Shown here piece by piece: positions 6,455 to 64,000 of a stretch of 64,000 bases of DNA. Where the stretch lies: contig OY970290.1 of the NCBI GenBank assembly GCA_963716205.1, positions 303,417 to 367,416 of the forward strand, in the 5' to 3' direction. The translations under genes were made by a program, and so were the position numbers. This stretch comes from an uncultured bacterium (GTDB taxonomy: Bacteria > Patescibacteriota > Minisyncoccia > Phycocordibacterales > GWA1-40-21). Every line of letters starts with the position of its first letter. Position 1 is the stretch's first letter. Below the pieces are notes generated by a model, which saw only the letters and a program-made list of their open reading frames with translations, did no database searches and was not told where the DNA came from.

Positions 6455-6488
6455 AAACGGGCGACCTTCGGTCGCCCGTTTTTATTTC
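6455..6488 (+). terminator. Rho-independent terminator after rpoD
   Basis: Perfect hairpin ACGGGCGACC-TTCG-GGTCGCCCGT followed by TTTTTATTT. Confidence 0.7.
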
Positions 6489-6829
6489 TAAAAGTTATCC
6501 ACAAAAAAATAGTTCCTGCACGTATTATTGCACTGCACGAAAACATTATGATTACATTACCGGATTTGGAAGTCCGCTGACGGATATATTTTAGCTTTGT
6601 GCTAAAATAGCTACATGACCTTCGAGGAACGCTATCAGAGTCTCAACCGGACGATAAAGGAAAATACAAAAAAGAAAAATTTGCCACTACGAATGAAGAT
6701 ACAAAAGAATTAATTTCCATCATTCAAAAATTTACAACAGAAATCGCAAGTTTTGAATTTTGGGATAAAAAATGTTCGGACAAAAAATGCGAATACTGCA
6801 AACTGCGGGAAGTGATGACGAAAAATTAA

Positions 6830-7645
6830 TTATTTCAGTACCATATCGATTATTGAAGTCACATTTTCCAGAGGTATTGCACCATCGAGCACAATATCTT
6901 TATTGTCTGAAGATAAAGTGATATTTTGCGTCAAATTGTTGCTAGCAATATATGTTTCTATTGCTGTTGCTTCATCGCTTGTGAGGGGTGTTTTCAAAAT
7001 CATGATGCTGTACGGCGTGCCTTGCGCACCGGCAGTGACTCCGTCATTATAATCATTTTCCACTGCTTGAGCGGTTGTGTTGTTGGAAAGGCAATCATTG
7101 AATTGTGCCGTGTTGATGCCGTTATCTTGCGCGACCTGCATCAATTGAGCCGTATCTGAAGCGGTGTCGCGATCCGTCGCTCCTTGAAGCGGGAAGACGC
7201 TATACCATTCTTTTTCATAATTCCAGAATGCAGTATTGCCGCCAAGGGTTGCAACGCATTCAAATGCTTGCGCTTCATGCTGCGCATTCGGATGGAGACT
7301 GGTAAGTGGAAAATCTCGGTAAACCCAAGTAACTTTTCCTGTTGCGCCATAATTTGCAATGATTGTTTCCATCGTACTTTGGAACATCTTGCAATACGGA
7401 CAGGATGGGTCGGAAAATTCCACGATGACAATCGGTGCATTCGGATCCCCGAGAATATGATCGCTTGCGCTGACCGGTTTCAATGAAATATTTGATGGCG
7501 ATACTTGAGTGGTATTTGCCGGAGCCGGAATGTTGCTTTTATTTGACAAAAGTATGGCGCCCGCGATTAAAATACCGACGACAATAATAGCTCCCGGTAT
7601 TGAAAGATTATTTTTCTGGACTTCCATTTTTTGTTCTTCATTCAT
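6830..7645 (-). CDS. DsbA-family thiol:disulfide oxidoreductase (thioredoxin fold), membrane-anchored
   Basis: N-terminal TM helix, CPYC active-site motif (DPSCPYCKMF), 271 aa. Confidence 0.7.
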   Translation of the reverse strand: MNEEQKMEVQKNNLSIPGAIIVVGILIAGAILLSNKSNIPAPANTTQVSPSNISLKPVSASDHILGDPNAPIVIVEFSDPSCPYCKMFQSTMETIIANYGATGKVTWVYRDFPLTSLHPNAQHEAQAFECVATLGGNTAFWNYEKEWYSVFPLQGATDRDTASDTAQLMQVAQDNGINTAQFNDCLSNNTTAQAVENDYNDGVTAGAQGTPYSIMILKTPLTSDEATAIETYIASNNLTQNITLSSDNKDIVLDGAIPLENVTSIIDMVLK

Positions 7646-7695
7646 AAATTTTTATTTTATTTGATATGCAATCATTCTAGCATGTTATAGAACAG

Positions 7696-7724
7696 TTGCA
7701 AAAAATTCAATTTTCGGGTAGTAT
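7696..7724 (+). promoter_or_regulatory. Candidate sigma-70 promoter for rplU (TTGCAA-N17-TAGTAT) ending ~8 nt before the ATG
   Basis: TTGCAA at 7696-7701, 17-nt spacer, TAGTAT at 7719-7724; ATG at 7733; implies very short or absent leader. Confidence 0.3.
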
Positions 7725-7732
7725 GGTGACCT

Positions 7733-8050
7733 ATGGAATTTGCAATTATCAAGACAGGAGGCAAGCAATATAAGGTTTCAAAGGGCGATTCTCTCAAAAT
7801 TGAAAAGCTTTCGGATACCGCAAAAATTGGCGATAAAATTGTTTTTGATCAGGTTTTGCTTGTGGATAACGGCAAAGATACTTCCATTGGAATGCCTTAC
7901 ATCAAAGGTGCGAAAGTGGAAGCGAGCGTTGAAAAAATCGGCAAGCTTCCGACAATTACCGTCATTCATTACAAACAAAAGAGCAGATATTTCAAAAAGA
8001 ATGGTCATCGACAGCCATATTTCCAGGTAAAAATTGAAGCGATTAAATAA
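7733..8050 (+). CDS. rplU: 50S ribosomal protein L21
   Basis: MEFAIIKTGGKQYKVSKGDSLKIEKL... typical L21 N-terminus; 105 aa. Confidence 0.9.
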   Translation: MEFAIIKTGGKQYKVSKGDSLKIEKLSDTAKIGDKIVFDQVLLVDNGKDTSIGMPYIKGAKVEASVEKIGKLPTITVIHYKQKSRYFKKNGHRQPYFQVKIEAIK

Positions 8051-8062
8051 ATACATATACAT

Positions 8063-8098
8063 AAAGAGCGGCGCCAAAGGCGCCGCTCTTTTGATTTA
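8063..8098. terminator. Hairpin terminator between convergent rplU and recR
   Basis: AGAGCGGCGCC-AAA-GGCGCCGCTCT hairpin followed by TTTTGATTT. Confidence 0.6.
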
Positions 8099-8109
8099 AT
8101 TTTATTTTT

Positions 8110-8745
8110 TTAACTCCTATTTTTCAGTGCATTTTTGATTGTTTCCGGATCGGAATATTCAAGCTCGGTGCCCGTCGAAAGTCCGCGGCCGAGTTCGGAA
8201 ATTTTGATGCTGTATTTTGACGCAATGGGGGAGAGTTCGTTTTTCAAAAGTTCCGCCGTATATTCACCTTCGGAATTTGCATCAAGCCCGAGAATAATTT
8301 CTTTCAGACTTTTCTCTGAAATTCTACTCACGAGTGAAAGCAATTCTTTTAGGCGAATTCTTTGTTCCGGGTTTTTGTCGAGTATTGGCACAAGCCCGCC
8401 AAGGACAAAATATTTTCCATTAAAGGGATGACTTTTCTCAATATTATCGAGATCAATATCCCGGCTGACAATCATCAGCAATTCTTTGTCGCGTCTTTCA
8501 TCCGCACAAATACCGCAGAGATTTGTGCCATTTACTTGTTTACCTTTCTGTAAAGAAATCGAGAAATATCGTTTGCAATCAGCACAGGATTCAATATCGG
8601 ATTTCAGCTCGCTGATTTCATTTTTAAATTCCTCGATATACCCCTGCGATCGAGTAATTAAAAAATATACAAAACGCCTCGCTTGTTTTGGCCCGATTCC
8701 GGGAAATTCGGAAAATATTTTGATAAGTTTTTCGATTGAGTTCAT
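8110..8745 (-). CDS. recR: Recombination protein RecR
   Basis: C4 zinc finger (CADCKRY...CGICADERRD), Toprim-like C-terminal region; 211 aa. Confidence 0.88.
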   Translation of the reverse strand: MNSIEKLIKIFSEFPGIGPKQARRFVYFLITRSQGYIEEFKNEISELKSDIESCADCKRYFSISLQKGKQVNGTNLCGICADERRDKELLMIVSRDIDLDNIEKSHPFNGKYFVLGGLVPILDKNPEQRIRLKELLSLVSRISEKSLKEIILGLDANSEGEYTAELLKNELSPIASKYSIKISELGRGLSTGTELEYSDPETIKNALKNRS

Positions 8746-8746
8746 A

Positions 8747-10126
8747 TTAAAATACTTCGCTTGTCTGGCTGAAATCCCCGAAATTATCCTTATCCATAGT
8801 CAGGAATGTTGCTTTATCACGATCAAAAAACAGGTCTACTTTTCCGGTTGGACCGTTTCGGTGCTTTTCGATCAGTATTTCGGCTGTCTGTTTTTTGCCT
8901 ACGCCGTCTTCATTTTGGTCAGCATGGATAAACATAACGACATCCGCGTCCTGCTCGATAGAACCCGAATCTCGCAGATCGGAAAGGCGAGGTCTGCCAC
9001 CGCGGGATTCAACGGCACGGGAAAGCTGGGAAAGAGCAAGGACAGGGATGTCGAATTCTTTTGCAAGCTGCTTGAGCGAATGTGATATCTCGGTGATCTG
9101 TTGGACCATATTGTCTCCGCCTTTCGTCTGTACCGGCGCCATGAGCTGAAGATAGTCTACAATCACAAGCCCGAGATTTTTCTCATGCTTCAACCGCCTC
9201 ACCACGGAGCGCATTTTCAAAATATTATTCGCCGCCTGGTCATCGATAAAAAGAGGAGCTTTAGAAATCGGGTCAAGCGAGCTGCGGATTTTGTCGAATT
9301 CACTGTCAAGCGAAAGTTTGCCTGTGCGAAGCTTCCATGCATCGACGCGAGCTTCAGCGGCGAGTATGCGGTCGACGAGCTGCTGCGTCGACATTTCAAG
9401 GGAAAATATCACAGTCGGAATCTGGGAACGTATCGTTACGTTGCGGGCGATATCAAGCGCGAGAGAAGTTTTTCCCATGCTTGGCCGCGCGGCAAGGATG
9501 ACCAGATCGGAATTCTGCAAACCGGAAAGTTTGAAATCAAGATCTTTGAATCCTGTCGGCACGCCGCGGATTTCATCTTTACTGTTATGAAGCCGGTCGA
9601 GCCGATCCATCGCAGTATTGATAACATCTTTCATCTGGACATATTTTCCAGAAAGATTTTTGCTTGTCACTTCGTATAATTTTTTCTCCGCTTTGTCCAA
9701 AATACCGAGAAGCTCAGCTTCTTCGTCGTAGCCGAGATTGCCGATATGCTCCGCTGCTTCGATGAGCCGTCGCATGATATATTTTTTCTGAATTATTTCC
9801 GCATAATGTTCGGCATTCGTTGAAGAGGGAACTGAATTCACCACTTCGGTCAGGAAACTTGCACCACCGACACGATCCAAGTCGCCAGATTCTTTGAGTT
9901 TGGATGAAAGCGTCAAAAGATCAATCGGTTCCTGCCGTTTGTAAAGCTCCGCCATCGCAGAAAAAATTGTTTTGTGTTTTTGCGTATAAAAAGCTTCTGG
10001 CACGAGCAGGTCCATGATTTCCGGCAAGACTTCCGGGCGAAGCATGATGGAGCCGAGCAGCGCCATTTCCGATTCGGTATTTTGTGGAGGAATCCTGATA
10101 TTTATTTTTCGCGTTTCAGTTGCCAT
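8747..10126 (-). CDS. dnaB: Replicative DNA helicase DnaB
   Basis: N-terminal DnaB domain (LLGSIMLRPEVLPEI), Walker A (ARPSMGKTSLALDIA), RecA-fold motifs; 459 aa. Confidence 0.9.
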   Translation of the reverse strand: MATETRKINIRIPPQNTESEMALLGSIMLRPEVLPEIMDLLVPEAFYTQKHKTIFSAMAELYKRQEPIDLLTLSSKLKESGDLDRVGGASFLTEVVNSVPSSTNAEHYAEIIQKKYIMRRLIEAAEHIGNLGYDEEAELLGILDKAEKKLYEVTSKNLSGKYVQMKDVINTAMDRLDRLHNSKDEIRGVPTGFKDLDFKLSGLQNSDLVILAARPSMGKTSLALDIARNVTIRSQIPTVIFSLEMSTQQLVDRILAAEARVDAWKLRTGKLSLDSEFDKIRSSLDPISKAPLFIDDQAANNILKMRSVVRRLKHEKNLGLVIVDYLQLMAPVQTKGGDNMVQQITEISHSLKQLAKEFDIPVLALSQLSRAVESRGGRPRLSDLRDSGSIEQDADVVMFIHADQNEDGVGKKQTAEILIEKHRNGPTGKVDLFFDRDKATFLTMDKDNFGDFSQTSEVF

Positions 10127-10213
10127 GAAATTGTTAGTTTCATTTTAACAAGCGTAAAAATTCACCGCAATGGCGACTATTGGCACAATGTGTGGTTAAA
10201 TTGTGGAGAAAAT

Positions 10214-11614
10214 TTAACCGAGTTTCTTTATTTCTTGTCCTTCTGTCGTATCCTTTACTTCATATCCAAGCTTTGCGATTTCATCACGCAATTCATCCGA
10301 CTTTTTCCAATCTTTATTTTGCCGGGCAAGTTTTCTTTCTTCCACAAGTTTTTGCACTTCCTCTGGAATTTTTTCCATTGAATTTTTTGTAGTCACTGAT
10401 TTCAAATCAAGCCCAAGCACGGTATCAAAATCAAACGCTGTCGTAAGCTTTTCGGCAGGGGAGATGTCAGACTTCAGCATTTCATTCAATATCGCCATCG
10501 CCTGCGGCATATTCAGATCATCATTCACGGCATTTAAAAACTTTTCTTTCCATCCATTATTTATTTTTCCAATTTTATCACCGAGATTTCCAATCTTTGC
10601 ATACAAATTCTCTAAGCCATTTTTTGCTGCTTGCAATATTTCATCATTCCATTCCATCTGCTTTCGATAATGAACGGTTAGGTTGGCAAAACGATAGACG
10701 ATAGGATTAATATTTTTTTTTATAAAAACATTTTCAACAGTAATCACATCTCCTGCACTTTTTGACATTTTCCGGTCTAAAAGATTCAGAAATTCTCCAT
10801 GTATCCAATAATTCACCCATGGTTTTTTGCCTGTAGCAGCTTCTGTTTGGGCTATTTCATTGGTATGGTGCAAGTTAATGAAATCCACTCCACCGCAGTG
10901 AATATCAAAATGATCTCCCAAATATTTCAAACTCATTGCCGAACATTCAATATGCCAACCGGGGAAACCGATACCCCACGGACTTGGCCATTCCATCTGT
11001 CTTTTTTCATTTTTCGGGGAGAATTTCCAAAGTGCAAAGTCGGTATGATTCTTTTTTTCTGTATTTACTTCGACGCGGACGCCTTCTTTCAAATCCTCAA
11101 GTTTCTGTCCAGACAATTTCCCGTAATCGGGAAATTTTGACGTATCAAAATAAATTCCATCACTCGTTTTATACGTAAATCCTTTTTTTTCAAGTCTTTG
11201 TATAAGTTTTATCTGCTCGGGAATATTGTCTGTTGCTTTGCAAAATGTGGTGGGGAAGAGAATGTTTAGATTTTTTAAATCTTTTTTGAAAGCTTCAGTA
11301 TAAAATTCTGCAATCTGCCATGCGGTTTTGCCTTCTTTTTTCGCTTCTTTCTCGACTTTGTCCTCACCCATATCGCGGTCGTTCGTCAGATGCCCAACAT
11401 CGGTGATATTCATCACATGATCCACTTTGTAGCCATTGTAAAACAAAACGCGTTTGAGCAAATCCTCAAAAATATAGGTGCGCATATTGCCGAGATGCGG
11501 ATAATTGTAGACAGTCGGTCCGCATGTATACATGCCAACCTTGCCCTTTTTTATCGGCACAAATAAATCTTTTTTCCTGGTGAGAGTATTATAAAGATAG
11601 AGGGACTGGCTCAT
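10214..11614 (-). CDS. cysS: Cysteinyl-tRNA synthetase
   Basis: [20 protein letters not shown] (HIGH-type), KMSKSAGD (KMSKS); 466 aa. Confidence 0.92.
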
Positions 11615-12082
11615 TTATTTTTTCTTAATTTCTTTTTGCTCAAGTTTTTGCAAAATTTTCATCATGATTTCATTCTGGTTTTCCAAATGAATTAAAATGG
11701 TGTCGATTTCTTTTTCCGCAACCTGATTGAGCTCAAAATCCGCCTGCGCGCGGACATCGGTGTGATATCCCTGTAAATTTTGCCCGACCATGACGATAGG
11801 CAAGAGAATCATCTGGATGAGGTTTGATATAAAAAGCCAGAGCACGAAAGCGGGAAACGGATCAAACCGGAGACTGACCGGCGCGATGATATTCCAGCCG
11901 AGCCAGAGAATTGTCCAGATGATCAATACGTAAAAAAATCCCATGGAACCGACTTTTTTGGTAATCCATGCCGCCAGCTTTTCCGTTTTTGTTAAATGTT
12001 CCATCTGAAGAAGATAAAAATTCCGTACTGATGGTCTTAATTTTCGCAATTCATTTCTCGTGAGTGGTTTTTCATTATTCAT
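11615..12082 (-). CDS. DUF1003-family membrane protein (start moved to internal Met MNNEKPL to avoid overlap with ctpA)
   Basis: Two TM helices plus conserved DUF1003-like stretch ...PFPAFVLWLFISNLIQMILLPIVMVGQNLQGYH...; original ORF 11615..12187. Confidence 0.55.
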   Translation of the reverse strand: MNNEKPLTRNELRKLRPSVRNFYLLQMEHLTKTEKLAAWITKKVGSMGFFYVLIIWTILWLGWNIIAPVSLRFDPFPAFVLWLFISNLIQMILLPIVMVGQNLQGYHTDVRAQADFELNQVAEKEIDTILIHLENQNEIMMKILQKLEQKEIKKK

Positions 12083-42515: not shown

Positions 42516-45500
42516 TTATCGCACCAGCACAAATCCTTTTTCGGCATCAAGTTTTTTGAAAAGAACATATTTTGAACCAAGTTTCAGTCTTGAAAAATTG
42601 TTCTGTATGATCACCTCACTTGGTATTTTTTCCAGTCCGCCATATTGTTTTTTCAACTTTTCTCCTATTCCAAGTATTTCTTTTTCATTTGCGAGAATTT
42701 TCTTATCTTCGCTATTCAGATCAATTTCATACTTTTTACCACCAATTTCAAACTCACTTATTACTTTTCTAGAATCGCTCAATGTAGCTTTTTTCTTTGA
42801 AATCTTGAGTGCGTCCCTATTCCACGATTTTTCTCCTGCGACCATTTCCGATGTGCTAGCATCCAAATCTTTTTCCTTTTGTAGTGTCACGAACATGGAG
42901 CGATAATTGCTTCCGTGCAGAGCCTCTCCGGTATACTCGTCCACAATTTTAAAACCCAAATCTTTTGTCAACGACTTAAAACTATCGAAATCCTTAAAAT
43001 CAAGCGAGTAAATCATGTTCATGACGAATGATCCGCCCAATTTCAATACTCTGTTCATTTCAGAAAGTACCTTTAGACGTTCGTTATTTCCTTTGATTGG
43101 TTCAGCGGTGTAATGGAATGATAAGCATAAGTTCGTGAAATCGAATGACTTATTTGCGAATGGTATATTCAAGAAACTGCCGGCAACATTTTTTGCACCT
43201 TCGCTTTTCTCACTAGTAAAATGGCGCTCGTTCATATCCATACTGACAATATTATTCTGTAAGTTGTCAGCAATATGTCGTTTGAGCATCTCCGGACCTG
43301 AGGCCACATCAAGAATTTTCACGTCTTTCATTTCTTTATCTTTTATTAGATGCTCAATAATGGATCCTGAGACCCTGTTTGCGTTCGCTTGGTAATTTCT
43401 ACTACCCATATCGAGATAGGCTTCGGCATATTCATCCCCATGCTTTGCGATAAATTCGGAAAAGTCTGATTCACTTACTGATTTTACCGAACGGAAAATA
43501 CGAAATAATTTATCAAAACTCGAAAGATAAAAACGAGCAAGTTCGGCGTTCACGCTGAGATCTGCTGTGCCTTTTTCACTTTCTTTCAAGATTTCTTTTT
43601 CAATCTCTGTGACAGGTATTCCCTTGAGTAATTTTTCAACCGCCTTTTCTTTGATATCAATATATCGATGTATTCCCTCTTCAATAGAATCAGGGACGAT
43701 AGAGGTGACAACATCGAGATCATTTTTCATACCGACACGATATACACGGGATCGTTCCTGTCGTTCCTCGCTTTTCGTCCACGGTTCGTTATAGAACAAA
43801 ACGCTTTCGCCAGCTGAATAATCAACGCCGACTCCGGCAGTCTGCCCGCTAACCACGAGCAATATTTTTCCATCTCCATTTTTAAATTGTTCTTGAATCC
43901 TATCTCTTTCTTCCTTTTCTGTTTCTCCATGGACGATAAGAATTTTAACATCCTCTGGTAAATGAAAATTGTTTAATATCGATTTATCTCCCCGAATAAC
44001 ATCTTCCACGTAGTCGTTTACAAACATAAGAACTTTATTTTTCTGCTTGAATGTTTCGTTTAGATCCTGACCAACGGTTTCCGCTTTGATATTTTTGACC
44101 CCTGGGGTTGCTTCAAGTAATTCTGGGTTCAAAAGGAATTTTCGCATTACCTGAATTTTTTCCGTCGGCGAGAGAGAATCTTCCTCAAGAAGAAGTTCAT
44201 AGATACTTCTTTCATTTTCCGAAAGTCTGCTAAGCAGTACTCTCTCAATCATCTGGGGCATTTCGATATGCTCAGCCAGACTTTTCATTTGCATCTTGTT
44301 GACAAGCAACTTTCTTAATTCGGTGATATCACCGTTGATGATCGAACTAACAAGGTTTTTGTTTTCCATCTTTTCATACTTTTCCGGGTAGAGAAGTTTG
44401 AGTAGCATCGCAACATCCTGAATTTTGTTCGGAACCGGAGTACCGGAAAGAAGCGCCAGATATTGATCCTCTGTTTTTATCATGTCAGCAAGTATAATGG
44501 CGTTCTCCGCACGCACTCCTTCCTTCACATTCTTTATTTCATGCACTTCGTCAATGATCAACATGTCATAACCGATATCGTGCAATTTTTTCGTATTCTC
44601 GGCATTCAGTCTTTCCTGGGAAATCAACACGTAATCGAGATTCTCCCTATCCAAATTGTCCAGATCAAAAATGTTTTCTATGGTCAGGATTTTTGGCGCT
44701 TGTCCTGGTTTGAAATATCCAACTTGTTTCCCGTCCCCCGATACTTCGTCCGAAAGATATTTTTGCCATGTGCTTAACACATTACTTGGAGCTACAATTA
44801 AGCCAAGTTTTACGCCTAAACATTCTTTGGCAAGTATGGCAGAAGCGCTTTTGCCAACTCCCATTTCATCGGCAATAAGCAGACGCTTTTTGTCGGCAAT
44901 TTCCTTAATATTGATAGATTGGTAAATGTCAGGAAAATTCCTGTTTTCCTGAACATTATCAATCAATCGGTCTGGTTTTTCAAAACCGTGATCAACTGAT
45001 CTATAATAGTCCATCGTCGATTGAATAACCTCATCAAGTTCTGAACTGTTGAGTTTTTTGTTTTCATCCGAAATCTTGTTAAAAAATTCTCCAAAAATAA
45101 CTTTATCTGAATCAATTCTTTTATTTCTTTTTTCACCAAGATAATATTGAAGCGCAGAATCCTTCAATACCTCAAAAAGACCCGCTTTCAAATCTTTCTC
45201 TTTTATCAAATTAGATGAGACAGCGTACTCAAGATTTTCGGTATTAAATGGTATTCTGAGAAGTAAATAGTTACCAAGATATTCCGATATGATCTTATTT
45301 GCTTTTTCGACAGGTAAACCCTTGAAGTCTGGGTGCTGGGCGTACAATACGTCCAAAAAGCGTGAGGAACCGAATAAGCCGACTAATTTTCCAAATTTTT
45401 TCGCTTCTTCCGATTCACCCTTTCCTATATCCTCACATTTTACCTTTAATTCTTTTTCCAAATTTTCCTGAGAGTTTTTTTCATTCAATGATTCTTCGCG

Positions 45501-45653
45501 AAGTAGTTTCATTACTTCTTCTTGTGCTTCCGGAGAAAGAAACAAAGTTTTTTTACCGTTTTTTCCACGAAAATAGTCGTATTTTTTCCCAGAGTTCTCC
45601 GGATTTGATTGGGTTGATTCAATCGTATTATTAAAGGGTATTTTTTCGCTCAT
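42516..45653 (-). CDS. SNF2-family helicase fused to C-terminal class-I SAM-dependent methyltransferase domain
   Basis: SNF2_N motifs (LLIADEMGVGKS; MLIIDEVHEIKN), helicase-C region, then ILDVASGPEM...LKLGGSFVM (MTase motifs I/post-I); 1045 aa; last gene of 4-gene operon. Confidence 0.8.
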   Translation of the reverse strand: MSEKIPFNNTIESTQSNPENSGKKYDYFRGKNGKKTLFLSPEAQEEVMKLLREESLNEKNSQENLEKELKVKCEDIGKGESEEAKKFGKLVGLFGSSRFLDVLYAQHPDFKGLPVEKANKIISEYLGNYLLLRIPFNTENLEYAVSSNLIKEKDLKAGLFEVLKDSALQYYLGEKRNKRIDSDKVIFGEFFNKISDENKKLNSSELDEVIQSTMDYYRSVDHGFEKPDRLIDNVQENRNFPDIYQSINIKEIADKKRLLIADEMGVGKSASAILAKECLGVKLGLIVAPSNVLSTWQKYLSDEVSGDGKQVGYFKPGQAPKILTIENIFDLDNLDRENLDYVLISQERLNAENTKKLHDIGYDMLIIDEVHEIKNVKEGVRAENAIILADMIKTEDQYLALLSGTPVPNKIQDVAMLLKLLYPEKYEKMENKNLVSSIINGDITELRKLLVNKMQMKSLAEHIEMPQMIERVLLSRLSENERSIYELLLEEDSLSPTEKIQVMRKFLLNPELLEATPGVKNIKAETVGQDLNETFKQKNKVLMFVNDYVEDVIRGDKSILNNFHLPEDVKILIVHGETEKEERDRIQEQFKNGDGKILLVVSGQTAGVGVDYSAGESVLFYNEPWTKSEERQERSRVYRVGMKNDLDVVTSIVPDSIEEGIHRYIDIKEKAVEKLLKGIPVTEIEKEILKESEKGTADLSVNAELARFYLSSFDKLFRIFRSVKSVSESDFSEFIAKHGDEYAEAYLDMGSRNYQANANRVSGSIIEHLIKDKEMKDVKILDVASGPEMLKRHIADNLQNNIVSMDMNERHFTSEKSEGAKNVAGSFLNIPFANKSFDFTNLCLSFHYTAEPIKGNNERLKVLSEMNRVLKLGGSFVMNMIYSLDFKDFDSFKSLTKDLGFKIVDEYTGEALHGSNYRSMFVTLQKEKDLDASTSEMVAGEKSWNRDALKISKKKATLSDSRKVISEFEIGGKKYEIDLNSEDKKILANEKEILGIGEKLKKQYGGLEKIPSEVIIQNNFSRLKLGSKYVLFKKLDAEKGFVLVR

Positions 45654-45702
45654 ATAGCTATTATTAACGGTGTTTGATAAAAACGCAAGTTCAAATTATC
45701 GA

Positions 45703-47136
45703 CTAGTCACCTTTTAGTCTTTTTAAAATTTTTTTCTTATCGAGACCAGTTTCTTCTGCAATATTATCTAAAGATACCCAACCTTGTGGAGGTTCTGGCG
45801 TTAATTTTTCATCAATAAGTTCAACTAATTTTGGTGAATAATAATATGCCATAGCACCGCCCTTAGGATTTCTGAACATTCCCCTTTCTTTTTCAAGATC
45901 AGAGTTTTTTTCAATCAATCTATCGACAGTTTTTGTAATAGTCAAACTGTTAGCTTTTCTTTTTTCTTTGAGATTTAGTAATGACATCCAATTTTCTGGA
46001 GCCTCTAATATTAAATCTTTCTCAAAAAGTCTGATTAGTTCGGGAGAATAAAAATATGTTACAGGCCCACCTTTTGGATTTTTAAATATCCCCCTTTCTT
46101 TCTCAAGATTGGGATTTTTCTCGATCAATCTCTCAATTACCCCATCGATTCCTGTTCTGCTTATTTTTATTATTTTTAATTTTTCGTGAAGATCCAATGC
46201 TGGTATCCAATTTTCAGGGGCTTCAGGCATCAAGTTCTCATCAATAAGTTCGATTAGTTTGGGTGAATAGTAGAGCGATTTCAACCCATTTGGATTTCTA
46301 AACATTCCGGTTTCCTTCTCAAGCTCAGGGTTATTTCCAATTAATTCATTAATCACCCTTTCGATTGCAACTCTGCTAAACTTTATTTTCTCTTTAAGAA
46401 AACTAGGCATAGATATCCAATTTTCAGGTGCCTCAGGCACCAAGTTCTCATCAATAAGTTCGATTAGTTTAGGTGAAAAATATATAGTGGGCATTCTATT
46501 TTCGTTCGTAAATACTCCCTTTTCTTTCTCAAGTTCAGGAGTTTTTTCAATTAATCTATCAACTATTCCTTCGATCGCCTTTCTACCTAATTTTGGTTTT
46601 TCCTTGAGAAGGCTTGGGAATGATACCCAATCCTTTGGAGATTCTTGATTTAATTTTTTTATTTTATCTTCAATCAATTTCACTAATTCTGGTGAGTAAT
46701 GAATAACTGATTTTCCGGCACTTGGTGAACGAAACATTTTAATATTTTCTTCCGCTTTCAATTTTCCGTCTGATTCATCAATGATTTGTTCAGCATATTT
46801 TCTAACAGTCGATTGATCAATATCATATCTGTCTATAATTGCAGTTTGTGTTGTCCAATCTTTTGGTGCGTCTTCAGTCAAATTTTTCTCAACTAATTCT
46901 ACAATTGCTGGTGAAAAATAAAATGACTTCCCCGTTTCTGAATTTCTAAATATCCCCCTCTCACTTTCAAGTTCTGGAAATTTTTCAATTAATCTATTGA
47001 CTAATCCATTGAACGCAGTTTTTTTGAGATTAAATCTTTTCTTAAGATCAGGTGTAGATACCCAATTTTCCGGAGCCTCCGTTGCTTCGGGTTTTTGTTC
47101 TGACTCAAAATTGTTTGTAAGGAATTTTTCTGACAT
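45703..47136 (-). CDS. Tandem-repeat protein (~6 copies of a ~70-aa HTH-like module)
   Basis: Repeat consensus PE(A)PE-W-s-L-sL-EK-g-sk--I---a-KIIEES-G-L-K--E-G-F-S-K-g-P--YySPkLVELIE--L; 477 aa. Confidence 0.7.
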   Translation of the reverse strand: MSEKFLTNNFESEQKPEATEAPENWVSTPDLKKRFNLKKTAFNGLVNRLIEKFPELESERGIFRNSETGKSFYFSPAIVELVEKNLTEDAPKDWTTQTAIIDRYDIDQSTVRKYAEQIIDESDGKLKAEENIKMFRSPSAGKSVIHYSPELVKLIEDKIKKLNQESPKDWVSFPSLLKEKPKLGRKAIEGIVDRLIEKTPELEKEKGVFTNENRMPTIYFSPKLIELIDENLVPEAPENWISMPSFLKEKIKFSRVAIERVINELIGNNPELEKETGMFRNPNGLKSLYYSPKLIELIDENLMPEAPENWIPALDLHEKLKIIKISRTGIDGVIERLIEKNPNLEKERGIFKNPKGGPVTYFYSPELIRLFEKDLILEAPENWMSLLNLKEKRKANSLTITKTVDRLIEKNSDLEKERGMFRNPKGGAMAYYYSPKLVELIDEKLTPEPPQGWVSLDNIAEETGLDKKKILKRLKGD

Positions 47137-47141
47137 AGATT

Positions 47142-49016
47142 TTAAATATTGTTTCCTTTAATTATCCTTTTTATTTTTTCTTTACTTATTCCGATTTTTT
47201 CCGACAAAGAATCTATACTCTCCCATCCTTTTGGGGCTTTTTCTGGTAAATTTTTCTCAATTAGTTCAATTAGTTTTGGAGAAAAGTATGTTGCGGGTAA
47301 ACCACTTTTTTTAGAGGCAAACATTTTTTCTTCTTTTCCCAATCCATTGTTCGATTCCTCAATTATTTTCTTGGCTATACCCTTAATTATGGAGACACTG
47401 ACATTATTTTTTTCTGCAATCGAAACCAAACTTATCCATCCTTCAGGACTCTGCTGAGGAAGACTTTGTTCAACTAAATCAACTAATTTTGGCGAAAGAA
47501 ATAATGTAGATTTGTTATTCTCAGAAAAGAATATACCCGCTTCTTTTCCGAGTTTCCCCTTCGATTCTTCAATTATTTTTTCAGATCTACTTTTAATTGT
47601 ATTTGGATCAACTTGATTTTTTTTTGCTATAGAAGCTATACTTAACCACCTATCAGGTGCTTCGTGCGGTATTTTTTTTTCAATCAATTCCACTAATTTG
47701 GGAGAGTAATATATTGCTGGCGGACCCATTTTTTTAGCAGAAAATTTTTTCATTTCCTCATTAAGTTTTCCATCTGATTCATTGATTATTTTTTGAGCAA
47801 TATTTTCAATAAACCCCTTACTGATTGAATATTTATTTACAAAGAAATTCGAGTCAGCCCATCCATAAGGAGCTTTCTCGGATAAATCTTCTTCAAGTAA
47901 TCTGACTAGTTTGGGCGAATAATATGATGTTGGAGGACCCTTCTTTTTAGAAAAAAATATTCCTGATTCTTCATCCTCTTTAAGATTCCCGTTTGATTCC
48001 TCGATTATTCTATTAACCTTATATGCAATTCCTGTTTTTGTAACTCCATATTTTTCCGCTAGAGAAATCAGATCTATCCACCCAATAGGTGGTTCTTGGG
48101 GTAGAATCCTTTCTATTGATTCTACTACTTTTGCCGAATAATATTTTGTTGGTTTATGGTTTTTGGCCCAAAATATCCCTGTATCCTTTTCTTCCGAAAG
48201 CTCACCTTTTGACTCCTCAATTATTTTTTTTGCTCTATTTTCATATGCTATTCTACTAATTCCATATTTTTTAGTTAGAGAAATTATATCAGACCATCCC
48301 TCAGGCGCTTTTTCAGGTAAGTCTCTTTCAATTAATTCTACCAGTCTAGGTGAATAATACATTGTTAGATTGCCGGACTTCTTAGACGAGAACATTCCAA
48401 CATTTTCGATTTTTTTGAGATTTTCATTTGAATCCCCAATTATTTTTTGAGCTAAATTTTCAATCGTTTTTTTATTTATTCTGTGTTTTTCAGCAAAAGA
48501 AATCCGATCGACCCATCCATCAGGTGCTTCGTGCGGTATTTTTTTTTCAATCAATTCCACTAATTTGGGAGAGAAAAAAGTTGATGGTTCATTATTTATT
48601 TTTGATGGAAACATTGACCTTTCTTTTTCTAGATTTCCATTTGACTCCTCAATTATTTTTTCAACAATTTTTATAATAGTGGGCATACTAATCCCGTATT
48701 TTTGTACTACAGATGTCATACTCACCCATTCCCCAGGTGCTCTTTTGGGTAGTTTTTTTTCAATTAATTCCACGAGTCTAGGTGAATAATATACTGCAGT
48801 AGGAATTTTTTGTGATGAAAATATCCCAATATCGTCTTTTTTAGTAAGACTTCCGTTCGATTCCCCAATTATTTTTTGAGCCAAATTTTCAATTAGTCCT
48901 CTACCAAATCCATACTTTTCTGTAAGAGAAACCAACATTTGCCATCCATCCGGAGATTCTACTGCTTCCGGTTTTTGTTCTGGCTCAAAATTGCTTATAG
49001 GAAATTTTTCTATCAT
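47142..49016 (-). CDS. Tandem-repeat protein (~9 copies of the same ~70-aa module)
   Basis: Same repeat; N-terminus MIEKFPISNFEPEQKPEAVESPDGW paralogous to neighbours; 624 aa. Confidence 0.7.
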   Translation of the reverse strand: MIEKFPISNFEPEQKPEAVESPDGWQMLVSLTEKYGFGRGLIENLAQKIIGESNGSLTKKDDIGIFSSQKIPTAVYYSPRLVELIEKKLPKRAPGEWVSMTSVVQKYGISMPTIIKIVEKIIEESNGNLEKERSMFPSKINNEPSTFFSPKLVELIEKKIPHEAPDGWVDRISFAEKHRINKKTIENLAQKIIGDSNENLKKIENVGMFSSKKSGNLTMYYSPRLVELIERDLPEKAPEGWSDIISLTKKYGISRIAYENRAKKIIEESKGELSEEKDTGIFWAKNHKPTKYYSAKVVESIERILPQEPPIGWIDLISLAEKYGVTKTGIAYKVNRIIEESNGNLKEDEESGIFFSKKKGPPTSYYSPKLVRLLEEDLSEKAPYGWADSNFFVNKYSISKGFIENIAQKIINESDGKLNEEMKKFSAKKMGPPAIYYSPKLVELIEKKIPHEAPDRWLSIASIAKKNQVDPNTIKSRSEKIIEESKGKLGKEAGIFFSENNKSTLFLSPKLVDLVEQSLPQQSPEGWISLVSIAEKNNVSVSIIKGIAKKIIEESNNGLGKEEKMFASKKSGLPATYFSPKLIELIEKNLPEKAPKGWESIDSLSEKIGISKEKIKRIIKGNNI

Positions 49017-49023
49017 ATAATTA

Positions 49024-51558
49024 TTAGGATATATTTTTATTAATAATCCTTCTAATTTTCTCCGCGTCTATTTTAGTATTTTTTGCAAGTGTCTCTACAC
49101 TAGTCCAACCTTCAGGGGGTTGATCAAGGGTTTCTCGGGAAAATTTTTCATTAATTAGCTCAACTAATCTTGGCGAATAATATATGGCAAGCCCACCAGA
49201 AGATCGAAACATTCCCATATCCATACTTTCCTTCAATTTTCCGTTCGATTCCAGGATTATCTTTTCAGCTGTATTTTTAACCGTGCTTGGATTAAATCCA
49301 TATTTTTTTGCGAGTGACACCCTGTCCATCCAATTTTCTGGTGCCTTCTTGGGCAGTCCTTGTTCGATCAATTCAACCAGTTTTGGTGAAAAATATGTTG
49401 TTAACCTATTATTACTTTTTTTTGACGGAAAAACACCGATTTCTTCATCCTCCTTCAATTTTCCGTTCGATTCATTAATTATTTTTTTAACTCGTTTTTG
49501 GATCGTCAATCTATTAACTTCATATTTTTCCATAAGGGAAACCATATCAGACCATCCCATTGGTGCTTCTTTGGGCAATCCTTGTTCGATTAATTCAATT
49601 AACTTTGGTGAGAAACATGTGGTAGGCATACCACTCTTTTTTGATCGAAATATTCCCATTTCATCCTCTTCCTTGAGTTCACCCTTTGACTCTTCAATTA
49701 TTTTTTTTGCTTTACGTTGAATATACTGATTATCAGTATTATATTTTTCCGCTAGAGATGCCAAATCCGCCCAATCTTTTGGGGCTTCTTTTAGTAAATC
49801 CTTCTCGATTAATTTAACTAATCGTGGTGAAATATATATTGAAGGTCTCTTACTTTTTTTTGACAGGAAAACACCCATTTCGTCTTCTTTCTTGAGCTCT
49901 CCATTTGATTCCTCAATTATCTTTTTAACCCTACCCTCAATTTTTGTTCTACTAGAATCATCTTTTTCTGAGAAAGAAAGCATACTTATCCATCCTTCTG
50001 GAACTTCTTTAGGTAAATTTTTTTCAACTAGTTCAACTAATTTTGGTGAGAGGTATACGGACGGAGGACCACCTTTGGGGGAAGGATAAATTCCCATCTC
50101 CTCATCTTTTTTGATCTTTCCGTTCGATTCTTCAATTATTTTTTTTATTCTATTTTTAATAGTGCTTTTATCTGCTCTACTTTTTTTTGTAACGGAACCT
50201 AAATCCAGCCATCCTTCGGGTACTTCCTTGGGTAGTCTCTGCTCAATCAATTCAATTAGTTTGGGTGAGAAATACATAGTTAACCTATTACGTTTTTTTG
50301 ATGGGAACATACCCATCTCATTGTCTTTTTTGAGTTCCCCCCCTGATTCCTCAATTATTTTTTTGGCCCTGTTTTCAATTATTGTTTTATCTATCCCATA
50401 TTTCTCTGTAAGTGGAATTATACTTATCCATCCATCAGGAGTTTTTTCAGGCAACTGTTGTTTAATCAATTCAACCAATCTTGGTGATAAATGCATGGAA
50501 GGACTACCGTTTTTATTCGAGGGGAAGATTCCCATCTCCTCATCTTTTTTGATCTTTCCGTTCGATTCTTCAATTATTTTTTGGGCTCTGCTTACAATCA
50601 TTGTTGCACCAAATCCGTATCTTTCCATAAGAGAAGATAAATCGGTCCAACCTTCAGGTGCATCTTTCGGCAATTCTTTTTTAATGAGTTCTGCAAACTC
50701 AGGAGAGAAATATGTTGTGGGATAACCACTTTTTTTAGCAGGAAAGGTCCCCATTTTTTTCGCAAGTTTTCCGTTCGATTCCTCGATTATTTTTTGGGCT
50801 CTATTCTCGACTATTGATCTGCTAGTTTTGTATTTTTTTAAAAAAGAAATTAGGTCTATCCATCCTTCGGGGGCTTCTTTCGGTAAATTTTTCTCGACCA
50901 ATTTAACTAACTTTGGTGAGTAATATATCGCTAATCCCCCAGGAGATCGAAACAACCCCGTTTCTTCACCTTCTTTCAGTTCTCCGTTTGATTCCTCAAT
51001 TGTTTTTTGTATTCTTCTTTTAAGAACATTCTCACCAACAGCATATTTTTCCATAAGCGTAGGCGTGTCTACCCAACTCATAGGGGCCTCGTTCGGCAAT
51101 TCTTTTTTAATGAGTTCTGCAAACTCAGGAGAGAAATATGTTCCGGGCACCCTACCCCTTTTAGACATAAATTCCCCAACCTCTTCAGTGAGATTTCCGT
51201 TTGATTCTTGAAGTAATTTTTTAACCCTCTTTTCAATAGTTCCTCTGCTGAGTTTATGCTCCTCAGCAAAAGAAACTAAATCTATCCATCCTTTTGGTGC
51301 TTCCTTAGGTAGATTTTTTTCTATTATCTCTGTCAACTTAGGTGATAAGTATTTTGCCGGTTTACCACCGTTTTTAGATTTAAACATCCCTATTTCCTCT
51401 GCTATTTCTCCGCTCGATTCCTCAACTATTTTCTGGACCCTTCTTTCGATTACACCCTTATCAAATCCAAATTTTTCTGCGAGAGAGGTTATATCTGTCC
51501 ATTCTTCAGGAGCTTCCTGAATTGACTCATTTGAATTAAATGGAAATTGTTCAGTCAT
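49024..51558 (-). CDS. Tandem-repeat protein (~12 copies of the same module); start moved to MTEQFPFNSNES by homology with paralogues
   Basis: 12 repeats, e.g. PEGWTDLSSLMERYGFGATMIVSRAQKIIEESNGKIKKDEEMGIFPSNKNGSPSMHLSPRLVELIKQQLPEKT; ORF extends to 51753 but upstream 65 aa are non-repeat and unlike paralogue N-termini. Confidence 0.7.
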   Translation of the reverse strand: MTEQFPFNSNESIQEAPEEWTDITSLAEKFGFDKGVIERRVQKIVEESSGEIAEEIGMFKSKNGGKPAKYLSPKLTEIIEKNLPKEAPKGWIDLVSFAEEHKLSRGTIEKRVKKLLQESNGNLTEEVGEFMSKRGRVPGTYFSPEFAELIKKELPNEAPMSWVDTPTLMEKYAVGENVLKRRIQKTIEESNGELKEGEETGLFRSPGGLAIYYSPKLVKLVEKNLPKEAPEGWIDLISFLKKYKTSRSIVENRAQKIIEESNGKLAKKMGTFPAKKSGYPTTYFSPEFAELIKKELPKDAPEGWTDLSSLMERYGFGATMIVSRAQKIIEESNGKIKKDEEMGIFPSNKNGSPSMHLSPRLVELIKQQLPEKTPDGWISIIPLTEKYGIDKTIIENRAKKIIEESGGELKKDNEMGMFPSKKRNRLTMYFSPKLIELIEQRLPKEVPEGWLDLGSVTKKSRADKSTIKNRIKKIIEESNGKIKKDEEMGIYPSPKGGPPSVYLSPKLVELVEKNLPKEVPEGWISMLSFSEKDDSSRTKIEGRVKKIIEESNGELKKEDEMGVFLSKKSKRPSIYISPRLVKLIEKDLLKEAPKDWADLASLAEKYNTDNQYIQRKAKKIIEESKGELKEEDEMGIFRSKKSGMPTTCFSPKLIELIEQGLPKEAPMGWSDMVSLMEKYEVNRLTIQKRVKKIINESNGKLKEDEEIGVFPSKKSNNRLTTYFSPKLVELIEQGLPKKAPENWMDRVSLAKKYGFNPSTVKNTAEKIILESNGKLKESMDMGMFRSSGGLAIYYSPRLVELINEKFSRETLDQPPEGWTSVETLAKNTKIDAEKIRRIINKNIS

Positions 51559-61496: not shown

Positions 61497-61874
61497 TTAT
61501 TCTTTATAGAAACCTTTTACAAATGCTTTGATTTTTGCTCCACTCCTTTTCAATAAGCTCGTTTGTTTCTTGGCAAATCGTTTCAGTTCAGTAGCCATTT
61601 CATCGACAACAATATCGATTGCCGCATACAAATCGCTTTCCTCGACTTCCGCACGCAAAGATTTTCCCCCGATATGGATTGTTAATTCCGCAACGAAAAA
61701 ATCGCCATTTTTGTGATGCTGCGTGCTTTTTCCCACCTCCACATAGCACATAACTTCATCCATATGTTCCGGGCTGATGAATTTATCAAGATGTGCAAGC
61801 TTTTTTTCCAGATAGTCCTTGATCGCCGGTGTGAGAGAAATTTCCTTTGTTTTTATATTATGTTTCATGATCAA
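61497..61874 (-). CDS. hpf: Ribosome hibernation promoting factor (RaiA/HPF, short form)
   Basis: MKHNIKTKEISLTPAIKDYLEKKLAHLDKF... YfiA/HPF fold; 125 aa. Confidence 0.8.
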   Translation of the reverse strand: MIMKHNIKTKEISLTPAIKDYLEKKLAHLDKFISPEHMDEVMCYVEVGKSTQHHKNGDFFVAELTIHIGGKSLRAEVEESDLYAAIDIVVDEMATELKRFAKKQTSLLKRSGAKIKAFVKGFYKE

Positions 61875-61877
61875 TGA

Positions 61878-62096
61878 TTATTTTTCTAAGCTGATAATTT
61901 TACTTTGCGAATGATGCCCATTTACTATCCTCACCTTATTATACACGTTAAAATATTTTCGCACCAGTTCAAGAACTTTTTTATTTGCCATGTTTCTTTC
62001 CGCCGGCTCTTTGACGGATATGACAAACGAATCGGCTGATTTTTTGACAATTTTTTCTTTCGTGCTTTCCGTGATGACTTTTACTTTGATGAGCAT
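61878..62096 (-). CDS. DUF167 (YggU-like) family protein
   Basis: IKVKV...KEKIVKKSADSFVISVKEPAERNMANKKVLELVRKYF...VRIVNGHHSQSKII matches DUF167 pattern; 72 aa. Confidence 0.55.
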   Translation of the reverse strand: MLIKVKVITESTKEKIVKKSADSFVISVKEPAERNMANKKVLELVRKYFNVYNKVRIVNGHHSQSKIISLEK

Positions 62097-62170
62097 GAAG
62101 ATATGGTATCATAAAATGAATAGTAAAGACTTCACTTTTTATATCCGATCTGCTATTATGGCGACGTATT

Positions 62171-62242
62171 CCGGGATAGCTCAGCGGTAGAGCGATCGCC
62201 TGTTAAGCGATTGGTCGTAGGTTCGATCCCTACTCCCGGAGC
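62171..62242 (+). tRNA. tRNA-Asn (anticodon GUU)
   Basis: Manually folded. Acceptor UCCGGGA/UCCCGGA is 7 bp. D-arm is GCUC-AGCGGUA-GAGC. Anticodon stem AUCGC/GCGAU with loop CUGUUAA gives anticodon GUU. T-arm is GUAGG-UUCGAUC-CCUAC. Discriminator is G. Confidence 0.85.
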
Positions 62243-63936
62243 AAGGTTGAACAGACACTAGCAAAGACCTCGTTTCGTCCTGATGTATCAATGATGTTTT
62301 CAGGTTCGAACTGAGGGTTTTTTGCTTTTGCTTCAAGTAGCCCATTTATAATCACTGAATACAAATCTACATTGGAAACACCAAGCTTTTTCTCCTTTAA
62401 AGTTAGGTTCGAACCAATCTCTGAAAGAGTCCCTCTTTTCGCTTCAATAGTCCCGTTTTCAAACACTTTCGATATACCAACAGCTAAATTAAATGCTCTT
62501 TGGGCCTTTTTTATTCTATACGGATCAGTGTGTCCTAGCCTTTGCAATTCTTCACGTAGATCATCAATTTCTTTCATTGTAGTTTTTTTTAACTCAAGAA
62601 ACTCATCATCTTCAAGAAGATGGCGAGCTTTCATACGAGCTAATTCTTTTTGCTCACTTTCTTTTTGAGCAAGGGTCTTTTCAAGCGACAATTTTTTCTT
62701 AGAATTATCTTGATGATCTGATGTGCCGAGTCGGTCTAAATTTTCAATACACCATTTACTGAGCGATTCTGAAATTTCAAGATTCTTTTTATAGTAAGAT
62801 GACAGGTAGCCGTCAATATAGACCTCTTGCACGCTACCTTCTCGGCAATTCTGATCTTTTTTTCTAGTGCAGTGATAGTAAATATAATGGAGATAGAGAG
62901 GATTATCCATTTTTTCTATCACCATCTTACATTTTGGACACGCCGATCTATTCAAATATGAGAATTTAAATTTACATTCAGAGCATATAAGCTGATATTT
63001 ATGTTCTGCGGTTACTGAACCACTACAACCACCACACCTCGTTGGCCCAGTGTAGGCAAATCCAAGAATGTTCTTAGATGCTCTCGGTCTACCACGGTTT
63101 CCAAGGATTTTTTGAATTTCCCAGTATTGATCCTCGCTAATCATTCGGGGAACATCTGCATTTAATTCATGTCGAATACCATCCTTAGTGAAAAAGAATC
63201 CTGCATAGACCGGATTTTTCAAAATGGTATCAAAGATGTATGAAGCAACTAATTTTTTACCTCCCTGTTTTTTATGTAATTTGGTTCGTAATCCTAATTT
63301 ATCATTAGCGAATGCCATAAGTTTTCGGACTGAATAAGTGCCGGTCAAAAATACTTCAAGAAGTTGACACATTAGATTGAATCGGTCTTCATCAATTAAC
63401 CATCCACGTGCACCAGGTTCTGCGGATAGATCATTCTTAAAACCGATCGGAGCCACACCATTTGGATATCCCCGGTCAACTCTTTCTCGAATACCACGCT
63501 TCGTATCGGTGCTGAGATCTTTTATATATTGATTTGCCATACCGAGTTCAACAGCCATAACAATGACATTATCATCAGGATAAAAGCTGTTGCCGTATGT
63601 TTGAATATGTTTGATAATTCTCTGTTGAAGCATCCAACTGATAGTGCCTCCATCAATTGGGTTGCGAGCAAGTCGGTTCAGTTTCCAAACCAACAAACCG
63701 TCCGCTTCGCCCCGATTGATTCTTTCAATCATATTCGTAAACACTGGTCTGCCCGGAGCTTTTGCAGATTGAGATTCTTCAAGAATCTGAACAATTTCAA
63801 GTCCATGCTCTTTTGCAAATTCAAGCAGCTCTCTTTTTTGAGCATCAATTGATTGCACCTGACGATCTTCAGTATCACTTGATCGGCGACAATACATAAA
63901 ATATCTTATTTTTCTGTGTTCTATCTGTTTTTTCAT
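62230..63936 (-). CDS. Large serine recombinase (resolvase/invertase N-domain + recombinase/zinc-ribbon domains), 3' end overlapping tRNA-Asn
   Basis: N-terminal ...YCRRSSDTEDRQVQSIDAQKRELLEFAKEHG (catalytic Ser region), central recombinase domain, Cys-rich zinc ribbon (CGGCSG...CSECKFKF...CPKCK), C-terminal coiled coil; 568 aa; last 13 nt overlap tRNA 3' end. Confidence 0.85.
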   Translation of the reverse strand: MKKQIEHRKIRYFMYCRRSSDTEDRQVQSIDAQKRELLEFAKEHGLEIVQILEESQSAKAPGRPVFTNMIERINRGEADGLLVWKLNRLARNPIDGGTISWMLQQRIIKHIQTYGNSFYPDDNVIVMAVELGMANQYIKDLSTDTKRGIRERVDRGYPNGVAPIGFKNDLSAEPGARGWLIDEDRFNLMCQLLEVFLTGTYSVRKLMAFANDKLGLRTKLHKKQGGKKLVASYIFDTILKNPVYAGFFFTKDGIRHELNADVPRMISEDQYWEIQKILGNRGRPRASKNILGFAYTGPTRCGGCSGSVTAEHKYQLICSECKFKFSYLNRSACPKCKMVIEKMDNPLYLHYIYYHCTRKKDQNCREGSVQEVYIDGYLSSYYKKNLEISESLSKWCIENLDRLGTSDHQDNSKKKLSLEKTLAQKESEQKELARMKARHLLEDDEFLELKKTTMKEIDDLREELQRLGHTDPYRIKKAQRAFNLAVGISKVFENGTIEAKRGTLSEIGSNLTLKEKKLGVSNVDLYSVIINGLLEAKAKNPQFEPENIIDTSGRNEVFASVCSTLLRE

Positions 63937-64000
63937 TTTCCTATTTTATATATATTCTTAGCCATATATTTGACATACCCATTATACCATTCTTGACATA

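Follow-up and report, generated by a model that had tools for sequence, protein, structure and literature searches.

What occupies the right-hand end of this stretch of DNA from an uncultured bacterium, where the gene of a large serine recombinase (LSR) reads antisense into the 3′ end of a tRNA-Asn gene? The window, by which the whole analysed stretch of 64,000 nucleotides is meant here (GCA_963716205.1, contig OY970290.1, positions 303,417 to 367,416), very probably ends in the left attachment junction (attL) of an integrative island of at least 14.6 kb that the LSR encoded at its edge has inserted, in a Paceibacteria-type genome of the candidate phyla radiation, at the 3′ end of tRNA-Asn. 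The features on which the question turns are the following:

62170..62242, plus strand: tRNA-Asn(GTT), called by ARAGORN
62170-62241, plus strand: the same tRNA-Asn in Rfam (RF00005, 71.5 bits)
62230..63936, minus strand: LSR gene of 568 aa, an open reading frame (ORF) facing outward at the island edge and reading into the tRNA
63937..64000, minus strand: region upstream of the LSR gene, where the island runs on past the window end
62230..62244, no strand: overlap and probable attachment (att) core CTACTCCCGGAGCAA, made up of the T-stem end, the acceptor 3′ strand, the discriminator and CAA

The tRNA-Asn gene, one of the two tRNAs found by ARAGORN in the window, does not encode CCA and has G62241 as its discriminator. 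To its right, the sole long ORF is the recombinase gene (62230-63936, minus strand), the 3′ end of which reads ...ACC TTG CTC CGG GAG TAG, with its stop codon TAG opposite CTA (62230-62232) of the tRNA T-stem. The overlap of both genes amounts to 12-13 nt and corresponds to the antisense of the T-stem end, the acceptor 3′ strand and the discriminator. Such an adjacency is not due to chance, because the overlap recurs in every member of the clade. To the left of the tRNA, hpf (Ribosomal_S30AE), fmt and def are colinear with related genomes. Both descriptions of this junction in the first-pass annotation were borne out, as the recombinase had been said to end 13 nt inside the tRNA 3′ end, which agrees with the ARAGORN, Rfam and ORF coordinates, and hpf, fmt and def had been placed upstream, of which hpf and fmt were identified and all three found colinear.

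The limit of the inserted DNA was located by comparison with related genomes, found through a search with the neighbouring core gene fmt. One of them, L155, has the gene order of the window (dnaX-dus-def-fmt-hpf-DUF167-tRNA-Asn), with core proteins 76-85% identical and a tRNA-Asn identical at 73/73 positions. The DNA of both is colinear up to window position 62242, and the identity ends after 62244, 2 nt past the tRNA: after the common ...GGAGCAA, the window continues with GGTTGAAC... of the recombinase gene, and L155 with AAAATTATTGAC... into unrelated genes. Neither a recombinase at the site nor any of the island's proteins was found in L155. Moreover, the site is also empty in L159, and an intron-containing tRNA-Asn with no recombinase behind it appears in L157. 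The island is present or absent, as a polymorphism, at a precisely defined chromosomal site.

Past the end of the window, the island could be read on L001, an 11,054-bp contig from a public sequencing run that encodes exactly the window LSR, matches window 62167-64000 with 0 mismatches over 1834 nt and runs 9220 nt further. Only accessory or mobile-element genes were found there:

L001, from the LSR inward: a 103-aa ORF, a tyrosine integrase, p140, p76, p297, a TM2 protein, a secreted protein
L001, continued: a ParB_N protein, a second serine recombinase, two small ORFs, the C-terminus of a helicase-nuclease

In particular, the tyrosine integrase (7759-8871; Phage_integrase Pfam E=4.5e−16, PHROG 1) lies ~400 bp further inside than the LSR, and the second serine recombinase (456 aa) stands beside the ParB_N protein (2304-3674 and 3677-4552). 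At the far end of the contig lies part of a helicase-nuclease, its C-terminal 437 aa, with the domains AAA_12, REase_MTES_1575 and DUF3320. The full-length helicase P0123 (1576 aa), identical to this fragment at 436/437 residues, shares one 681,747-bp contig with the LSR and fmt, and from this protein and the L001 extension together the island must therefore measure at least ~14.6 kb. Along its full length P0123 corresponds to PDC-S37, a candidate defence family of PADLOC (1162 bits), and it also matches Hhe. A search of the species-representative genomes with the helicase fragment returned relatives only, the best at 81% identity.

Some further observations concern these genes. The closest relative of the helicase-nuclease (81%), in L005, a Taylorbacteria metagenome-assembled genome, lies directly downstream of another serine recombinase (5200-6522 and 6578-11320), and helicase-nucleases of the PDC-S37 type may often travel with serine recombinases. 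Three recombinases are present in the island (LSR, tyrosine integrase and second serine recombinase), which suggests a composite or nested element. Furthermore, homologs of p76 (~76 aa, L001 7108-7338) were found in L070-L074 and L078-L080, every one of them upstream of, and oriented like, the LSR; p76 had no family match and is a candidate directionality factor or regulator.

With a serine integrase at tRNA-Asn, the edge of a prophage with virion genes further out would be another explanation, as LSRs are classic phage integrases and the best family match of this one is PHROG 95 'integrase' (E=8e−50). The gene content makes it highly improbable. Virion, packaging and lysis genes were absent from the 13 island proteins compared with Pfam and PHROGs in the part of the island that was read (9.2 kb of L001), and no virion, terminase or lysis genes appeared in up to 10 kb of cargo in eight relatives. 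Moreover, a scan of 2.9 million viral contigs gave only 7 weak and distant matches, the best at 39% identity, and the candidate elements delimited in two relatives would be only ~10 kb in size. On the other hand, the cargo of the window island and of its relatives matches known or candidate anti-phage systems by annotation. With no phage gene found in the part read, the element resembles, from its sequence, a small defence island rather than a prophage.

The relatives of the LSR were collected from 80 metagenomic loci. All those at least 41% identical to it end 12-41 nt inside an antisense tRNA-Asn, and in a neighbour-joining tree its own clade is on tRNA-Asn in 14/14 cases, with other clades on tRNA-Tyr, a second tRNA-Asn group, tRNA-His, tRNA-Trp and tRNA-Ser. 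On the host side, hpf, fmt and def are common to the window and L068-L070, whose LSRs are 64-76% identical to that of the window, and the adjacent core proteins 32-51%. Such similar LSRs in distant hosts, together with the empty site in the closer host L155, indicate that the LSR islands have moved horizontally. On the element side, nothing recurs but the LSR and p76 (in 8 relatives); no counterparts were found for the tyrosine integrase, the second serine recombinase, ParB and the helicase. The cargo differs in each relative examined and is mostly of defence or maintenance type, including restriction-modification, an OLD-like ATPase, AAA_15/DUF4435, a ResIII helicase, CBASS-like genes and an ImmA-type regulator, with Prim-Pol and AAA_25 in L070, and in L072 a match to PD-Lambda-4_A and a transposase fragment of insertion sequence (IS) type.

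It could also be thought that the tyrosine integrase on L001 (7759-8871) was the enzyme that targeted tRNA-Asn, the LSR being cargo or a nested element; it belongs to the Phage_integrase family, lies near the tRNA end of the island, and in the literature it is tyrosine integrases to which tRNA targets are ascribed (PMC4383910). We consider this very unlikely, since no homolog of it was found by tblastn in the loci of 87 relatives, while the overlap of LSR and tRNA is conserved. Only ~400-700 nt separate p76 from the LSR in relatives, which makes the tyrosine integrase look like a later arrival, and the att-like signals described below sit in the LSR gene itself.

Taken with the L001 extension, the empty site of L155 and the mobile LSRs with differing cargo, insertion by the LSR agrees with the first-pass annotation, in which an integrated element had been said to begin at tRNA-Asn and to continue, with its cargo out of sight, past position 64,000. 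It had been proposed there that prophage or conjugative-element genes and a direct repeat of the tRNA 3′ end, as the right attachment site (attR), be looked for in that direction, and that core genes alone with no such repeat would point to a stray recombinase. Mobile and accessory genes were found, 9.2 kb of them on L001, and none of them core; virion genes and attR were not found in those 9.2 kb, and to that extent the expectation was only partly realized.

The recombinase matches Pfam Resolvase (PF00239) at residues 13-156 (E=6.4e−19), and a family profile built from 39 homologs aligns its residues 11-306 with the SPbeta SprA integrase and 201-304 with the A118 recombinase domain (4kis). 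In an AlphaFold model built from the alignment of the same homologs (pLDDT 79.5, the last ~28 residues being of low confidence), the catalytic domain is followed by a long αE helix, a helical recombinase domain (186-278), a region of β-strands and a Cys cluster (299-370) and a helical hairpin (390-466). The best Foldseek matches of this model were full-length integrase-DNA complexes of SPbeta (E=1.5e−19), PhiC31, Bxb1 and A118. The Pfam models 'Recombinase' (PF07508) and zinc ribbon did not match the window LSR, for which only a weak DZR_2 (double zinc ribbon) match was obtained; both are among the precomputed Pfam domains of relatives, PF07508 in many of them. A resolvase-type catalytic domain, a recombinase domain after αE and a zinc ribbon with an embedded coiled coil are all present, and the LSR architecture claimed in the first-pass annotation is thus upheld by Pfam, PHROG, profile, AlphaFold and Foldseek alike. 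Active-site residues Y15, R17 and S19 are invariant in the 39 homologs, as are cysteines C301, C304, C318, C321, C333, C336, C356 and C364, and the enzyme looks intact, with all catalytic residues kept. The C-terminus of the family is conserved, and its longer tails translate the antisense T-arm (..DSN..).

A motif of (A)GGTTCGA type, resembling the tRNA T-arm, occurs in three copies with a spacing of 103 nt and then 83 nt. In the window, as in each of the 12 close relatives, the form (G)TCGAACCT occupies three fixed positions, the last of which is the T-arm of the tRNA:

62405..62415, no strand: motif copy 1, AGGTTCGAACC, in the LSR gene, encoding S509-N510-L511 in a frame unlike that of copy 2 and 103 nt from it
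62302..62311, no strand: motif copy 2, AGGTTCGAAC, in the LSR gene, with TTC GAA CCT on the minus strand encoding F543-E544-P545
62219..62229, no strand: motif copy 3, AGGTTCGATCC, in the T-stem and T-loop of tRNA-Asn, 83 nt from copy 2
62243..62252, no strand: degenerate T-arm-like motif, AAGGTTGAAC, directly 3′ of the tRNA and encoding ..V C S T L.., from the junction alignment of relatives

Measured from the T-arm copy (62219), the two inner copies are at 83 and 186 nt. Copy 2 is invariant in all 13 genes, synonymous sites included; the chance of all of them using TTC GAA CCT, given the codon usage of each gene and ignoring the relatedness of the sequences, was log10 P = −15.6. Of the 93 residues with degenerate codons that do not vary among the 13 genes, only 6 are encoded by a single codon throughout, and 5 of these 6 are in copies 1 and 2: S509 and N510 (copy 1) and F543, E544 and P545 (copy 2), the other being L566 in the tRNA overlap. 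In a distant subfamily copy 3 is read in the third frame (GTT CGA ACC), so that the copies span three frames across the family. From the single-codon use and the three reading frames it follows that the constraint acts on the nucleotides, and an effect of protein or codon usage was rejected on the same grounds. The inner copies are, as far as these alignments go, under nucleotide-level selection, which suggests accessory sites that might bind the integrase or a partner and regulate the reaction.

Other explanations of the inner copies were considered. With RNAalifold, copy 1 pairs with copy 2 on either strand, all pairs being invariant and without covariation; covariation was detected in the true T-stem only. 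Degenerate tRNAs were discarded, as Rfam recognizes the real tRNA alone in 62100-62600 (E<=10).

The geometry of the attachment sites was examined in 40 more distant relatives without a tRNA, in seven of which a check with Rfam found none. They have three motif copies at 103 and 88 nt, and conservation ends just past the third. The spacing between the second and third copies is 83 nt at all loci with a tRNA vs. 88 nt at all loci without it. The latter present an acceptor-like core of 7-8 nt that differs per element; that of L096, ACTCCCGGAGC, is the 3′ end of the window tRNA-Asn. Furthermore, the close relatives L099 (on tRNA-Trp) and L087 (no tRNA) agree through the antisense acceptor strand of tRNA-Trp and then diverge, L099 into the true T-stem and T-loop and L087 into a conserved arm with the motif 5 nt further out; the acceptor-like core of L087 matches the tRNA-Trp of L099. 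The spacings of 83 and 88 nt, with the acceptor-like cores, fit the published offset between the element (attP) and host (attB) sites of LSRs, which are short (about 40-50 bp) and have a 2-bp crossover: for the LI integrase, the motif bound by the zinc-ribbon domain is 5 bp nearer the centre in attB than in attP, and the inner region is similar (Rutherford et al. 2013, PMC3783163). We infer that copy 3 would be the outer, zinc-ribbon-domain recognition motif of the B half-site and that the loci without tRNA would be un-recombined attP sites. Beyond the junction, such loci carry more defence-type genes and not core genes, which fits the attP reading.

A mechanism may be proposed from these geometries. 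The 3′ part of tRNA-Asn would be attB, and the tRNA would form the B side of attL. The T-loop and T-stem (AGGTTCGA..) would serve as the outer recognition motif of one half-site and the acceptor 3′ strand as the inner part, with the crossover at or near the acceptor/discriminator end, within 62230..62244, so the tRNA would stay essentially host-encoded and functional. On the element, attP would lie at the 3′ end of the LSR gene, for which reason the last codons of the gene would cross the att core. AAGGTTGAAC at 62243..62252 would be the start of the element-borne P′ arm. In relatives of attP type, the other arm has the same motif 5 nt further out, beside an acceptor-like core, and this core would set the choice of target (Asn, Trp etc.). 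At the far junction, a copy of (A)CTCCCGGAGCA is predicted, with AGGTTCGAAC ~8 nt before it as the P arm. More speculatively, and with rather low confidence, the whole might be a composite att site, in which the T-loop would act as the outer recognition motif and two phased copies of a 10-nt palindrome (GGTTCGAACC) as accessory sites setting polarity, directionality or expression. By analogy, the inner copies would resemble sites II and III of a resolvase res site, as a hybrid control between resolvase and integrase. If so, the acceptor-like core would make the enzyme naturally retargetable between tRNAs.

Several observations weigh against insertion of the island by the LSR as set out here. 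The attP-type loci are not circular, showing no terminal overlaps, and several are on contigs of 57-276 kb. In the 9.2 kb of L001, neither exact suffixes (10 nt or longer) nor fuzzy patterns nor an ungapped scan with 24 nt revealed an attR above the opposite-strand control. Only two candidates for attR were found among relatives, and they disagree on the crossover: in L141, a 16-nt repeat starting in the T-loop (18/24 vs. 15 in the control), and in L072, a 13-nt repeat over the acceptor strand (the same segment as 62230..62244) followed by a terminator hairpin (16/24, at control level). These two candidates imply element sizes of ~10 kb. Lastly, the two further recombinases in the island could move all or parts of it.

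The missing attR would also suit a fixed and immobile remnant, in which the LSR-tRNA pair would be vertically inherited and domesticated for a host function. The attR candidate of L072 seems 8 nt short, the island of the same locus has the IS-type transposase fragment, and the host-side synteny recurs in L068-L070. This explanation is nevertheless unlikely, as the closest host relative, L155, lacks the island, the LSRs of distant hosts are more similar than their core genes and the cargo differs in every relative. Moreover, the ORF is intact with all catalytic residues present, and the att-like motifs appear to be under strong purifying selection. Insertion by an LSR acting on tRNA-Asn is therefore still preferred.

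Several tRNA-derived sequences were observed at the related loci. In L155 (~11790-11825) and L159 (~11725-11760), the first ~17 nt of tRNA-Asn recur in inverted orientation (e.g. CCGCTGAGCTATCCCGG) 10-15 nt before the tRNA starts; the window has no such copy. Pieces of the T-arm of tRNA-Asn, also inverted, were found in L072 (266-280, 15 nt, ~50 nt outside the attR candidate) and L141 (1298-1309, 12 nt, ~105 nt inside it), and may be scars of earlier events or extra binding sites. Moreover, LSRs read into an intron-containing tRNA-Asn in L073, L080 and, from the second tRNA-Asn clade, L133. In several genomes of the candidate phyla radiation, the anticodon loop of tRNA-Asn(GTT) contains group I introns, namely in L073 (11744-12035), L080 (11756-11969), L157 (11692-12274) and L133 (~11590-11700), with Rfam RF00028 scores of 72.5, 92.4 and 47.7 bits; all these tRNAs were missed by ARAGORN, and the intron of L157 encodes a 104-aa HNH-like ORF. 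L073 and L080, in which only the 3′ 40 nt of the tRNA had been visible, were rejected as attP forms for the group I introns scored by Rfam in their anticodon loops (72.5 and 92.4 bits), the tRNA-Asn genes of both being intact.

The remaining features concern transcription and the composition of the window:

62131..62159, plus strand: promoter-like site TTCACT-17-TGnTATTAT upstream of the tRNA, from a consensus scan

Such a scan gave 7 promoter-like sites vs. 5.8 expected, which is weak evidence. No terminator was found within 61800-64000, and so none after tRNA-Asn; transcription of the tRNA may therefore run antisense into the recombinase gene. The Logan contigs L001 and L002 share exactly 30 nt at window 62167-62196, in the 5′ half of tRNA-Asn; this break inside the tRNA was rejected as an att signal, being a k−1 (30-nt) branch of the assembly graph at a conserved tRNA segment. 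Furthermore, window 44000-50000 has a G+C content of 0.33-0.37 vs. ~0.40-0.44 elsewhere, with strongly negative GC and AT skews, and could be another acquired region.

Among known systems, the SPbeta SprA, A118/LI, PhiC31 and Bxb1 integrases share the domain order of the window LSR (catalytic Ser, αE, recombinase and zinc ribbon with inserted coiled coil), and the LI integrase would also share the offset of the outer motif, placed 5 nt further inward in the host site than on the element. However, the structure-solved LSRs are only 12-18% identical to it in sequence and use protein-coding genes or intergenic sites, whereas the window LSR targets the 3′ end of a tRNA gene. Furthermore, its ORF crosses the att core and enters the tRNA, its gene contains two additional motif copies, and the protein has an additional Cys-rich insertion in which eight Cys are invariant, as well as a weak double zinc ribbon match.

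tRNA genes are classic landing sites of tyrosine integrases. In Islander or P4-type islands and in actinomycete integrative and conjugative elements such as pSAM2, the site is likewise a tRNA 3′ end, the tRNA stays intact with an outward-facing integrase beside it, the cargo is variable and often defensive, and the att site of the element mimics the tRNA 3′ end. The window presents the intact tRNA at one end and the adjacent integrase gene by which Islander recognizes islands, but the family-conserved integrase beside the tRNA is a serine recombinase where Islander expects a tyrosine one, the recombinases of Islander or P4-type islands belonging to an unrelated superfamily. Moreover, islands of tyrosine integrases displace a long tRNA fragment, while the att core here appears short, ~10-13 nt of the acceptor strand. 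Prochlorococcus tycheposons and cryptic elements are also small tRNA-associated islands with cargo, some with replication genes, to which Prim-Pol and AAA_25 of L070 may be compared, although in a different host phylum; according to the tycheposon preprint, 27 out of 937 elements carry an LSR instead of a tyrosine recombinase, with neither att sites nor tRNA overlap described there. SCCmec CcrAB and the serine integrases of streptococcal integrative and conjugative or mobilizable elements are likewise LSRs that move non-phage islands into a specific conserved site, which is in these cases within a protein-coding gene (rlmH/orfX, rumA, traG, maff2). In the streptococcal cases the target gene is mostly disrupted by the element (PMC5357655), whereas the tRNA is preserved at the window island.

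In the genomic-island literature, serine integrases are not known to use tRNA genes (PMC4383910), a streptococcal survey found them mostly within protein-coding genes or intergenic regions and none in a tRNA (PMC5357655), and a provirus survey of 2026 reported that tyrosine integrases preferentially target RNA loci (PMC13626063). A literature search of limited coverage found no description of a serine integrase family dedicated to tRNAs, of the overlap of gene and tRNA or of the triple motif. On the sequence comparisons made here, this is a serine-integrase family specialised on tRNA 3′ ends, the att architecture of which is partly explained.

A large and diverse LSR clade of the candidate phyla radiation occupies the 3′ ends of tRNA genes, which stay intact, and would move small defence islands; the genetic exchange of these reduced genomes is a poorly understood matter. 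Serine integrases need no host factors and are prized tools for genome engineering. The T-loops of tRNAs are conserved in all life and would therefore offer near-universal landing sites. The triple motif is a clear case of a DNA signal embedded in coding sequence. Finally, the family seems to draw its specificity from the T-loop motif together with a short acceptor-like core that can be swapped, which points to a simple way in which these enzymes may be retargeted in nature.

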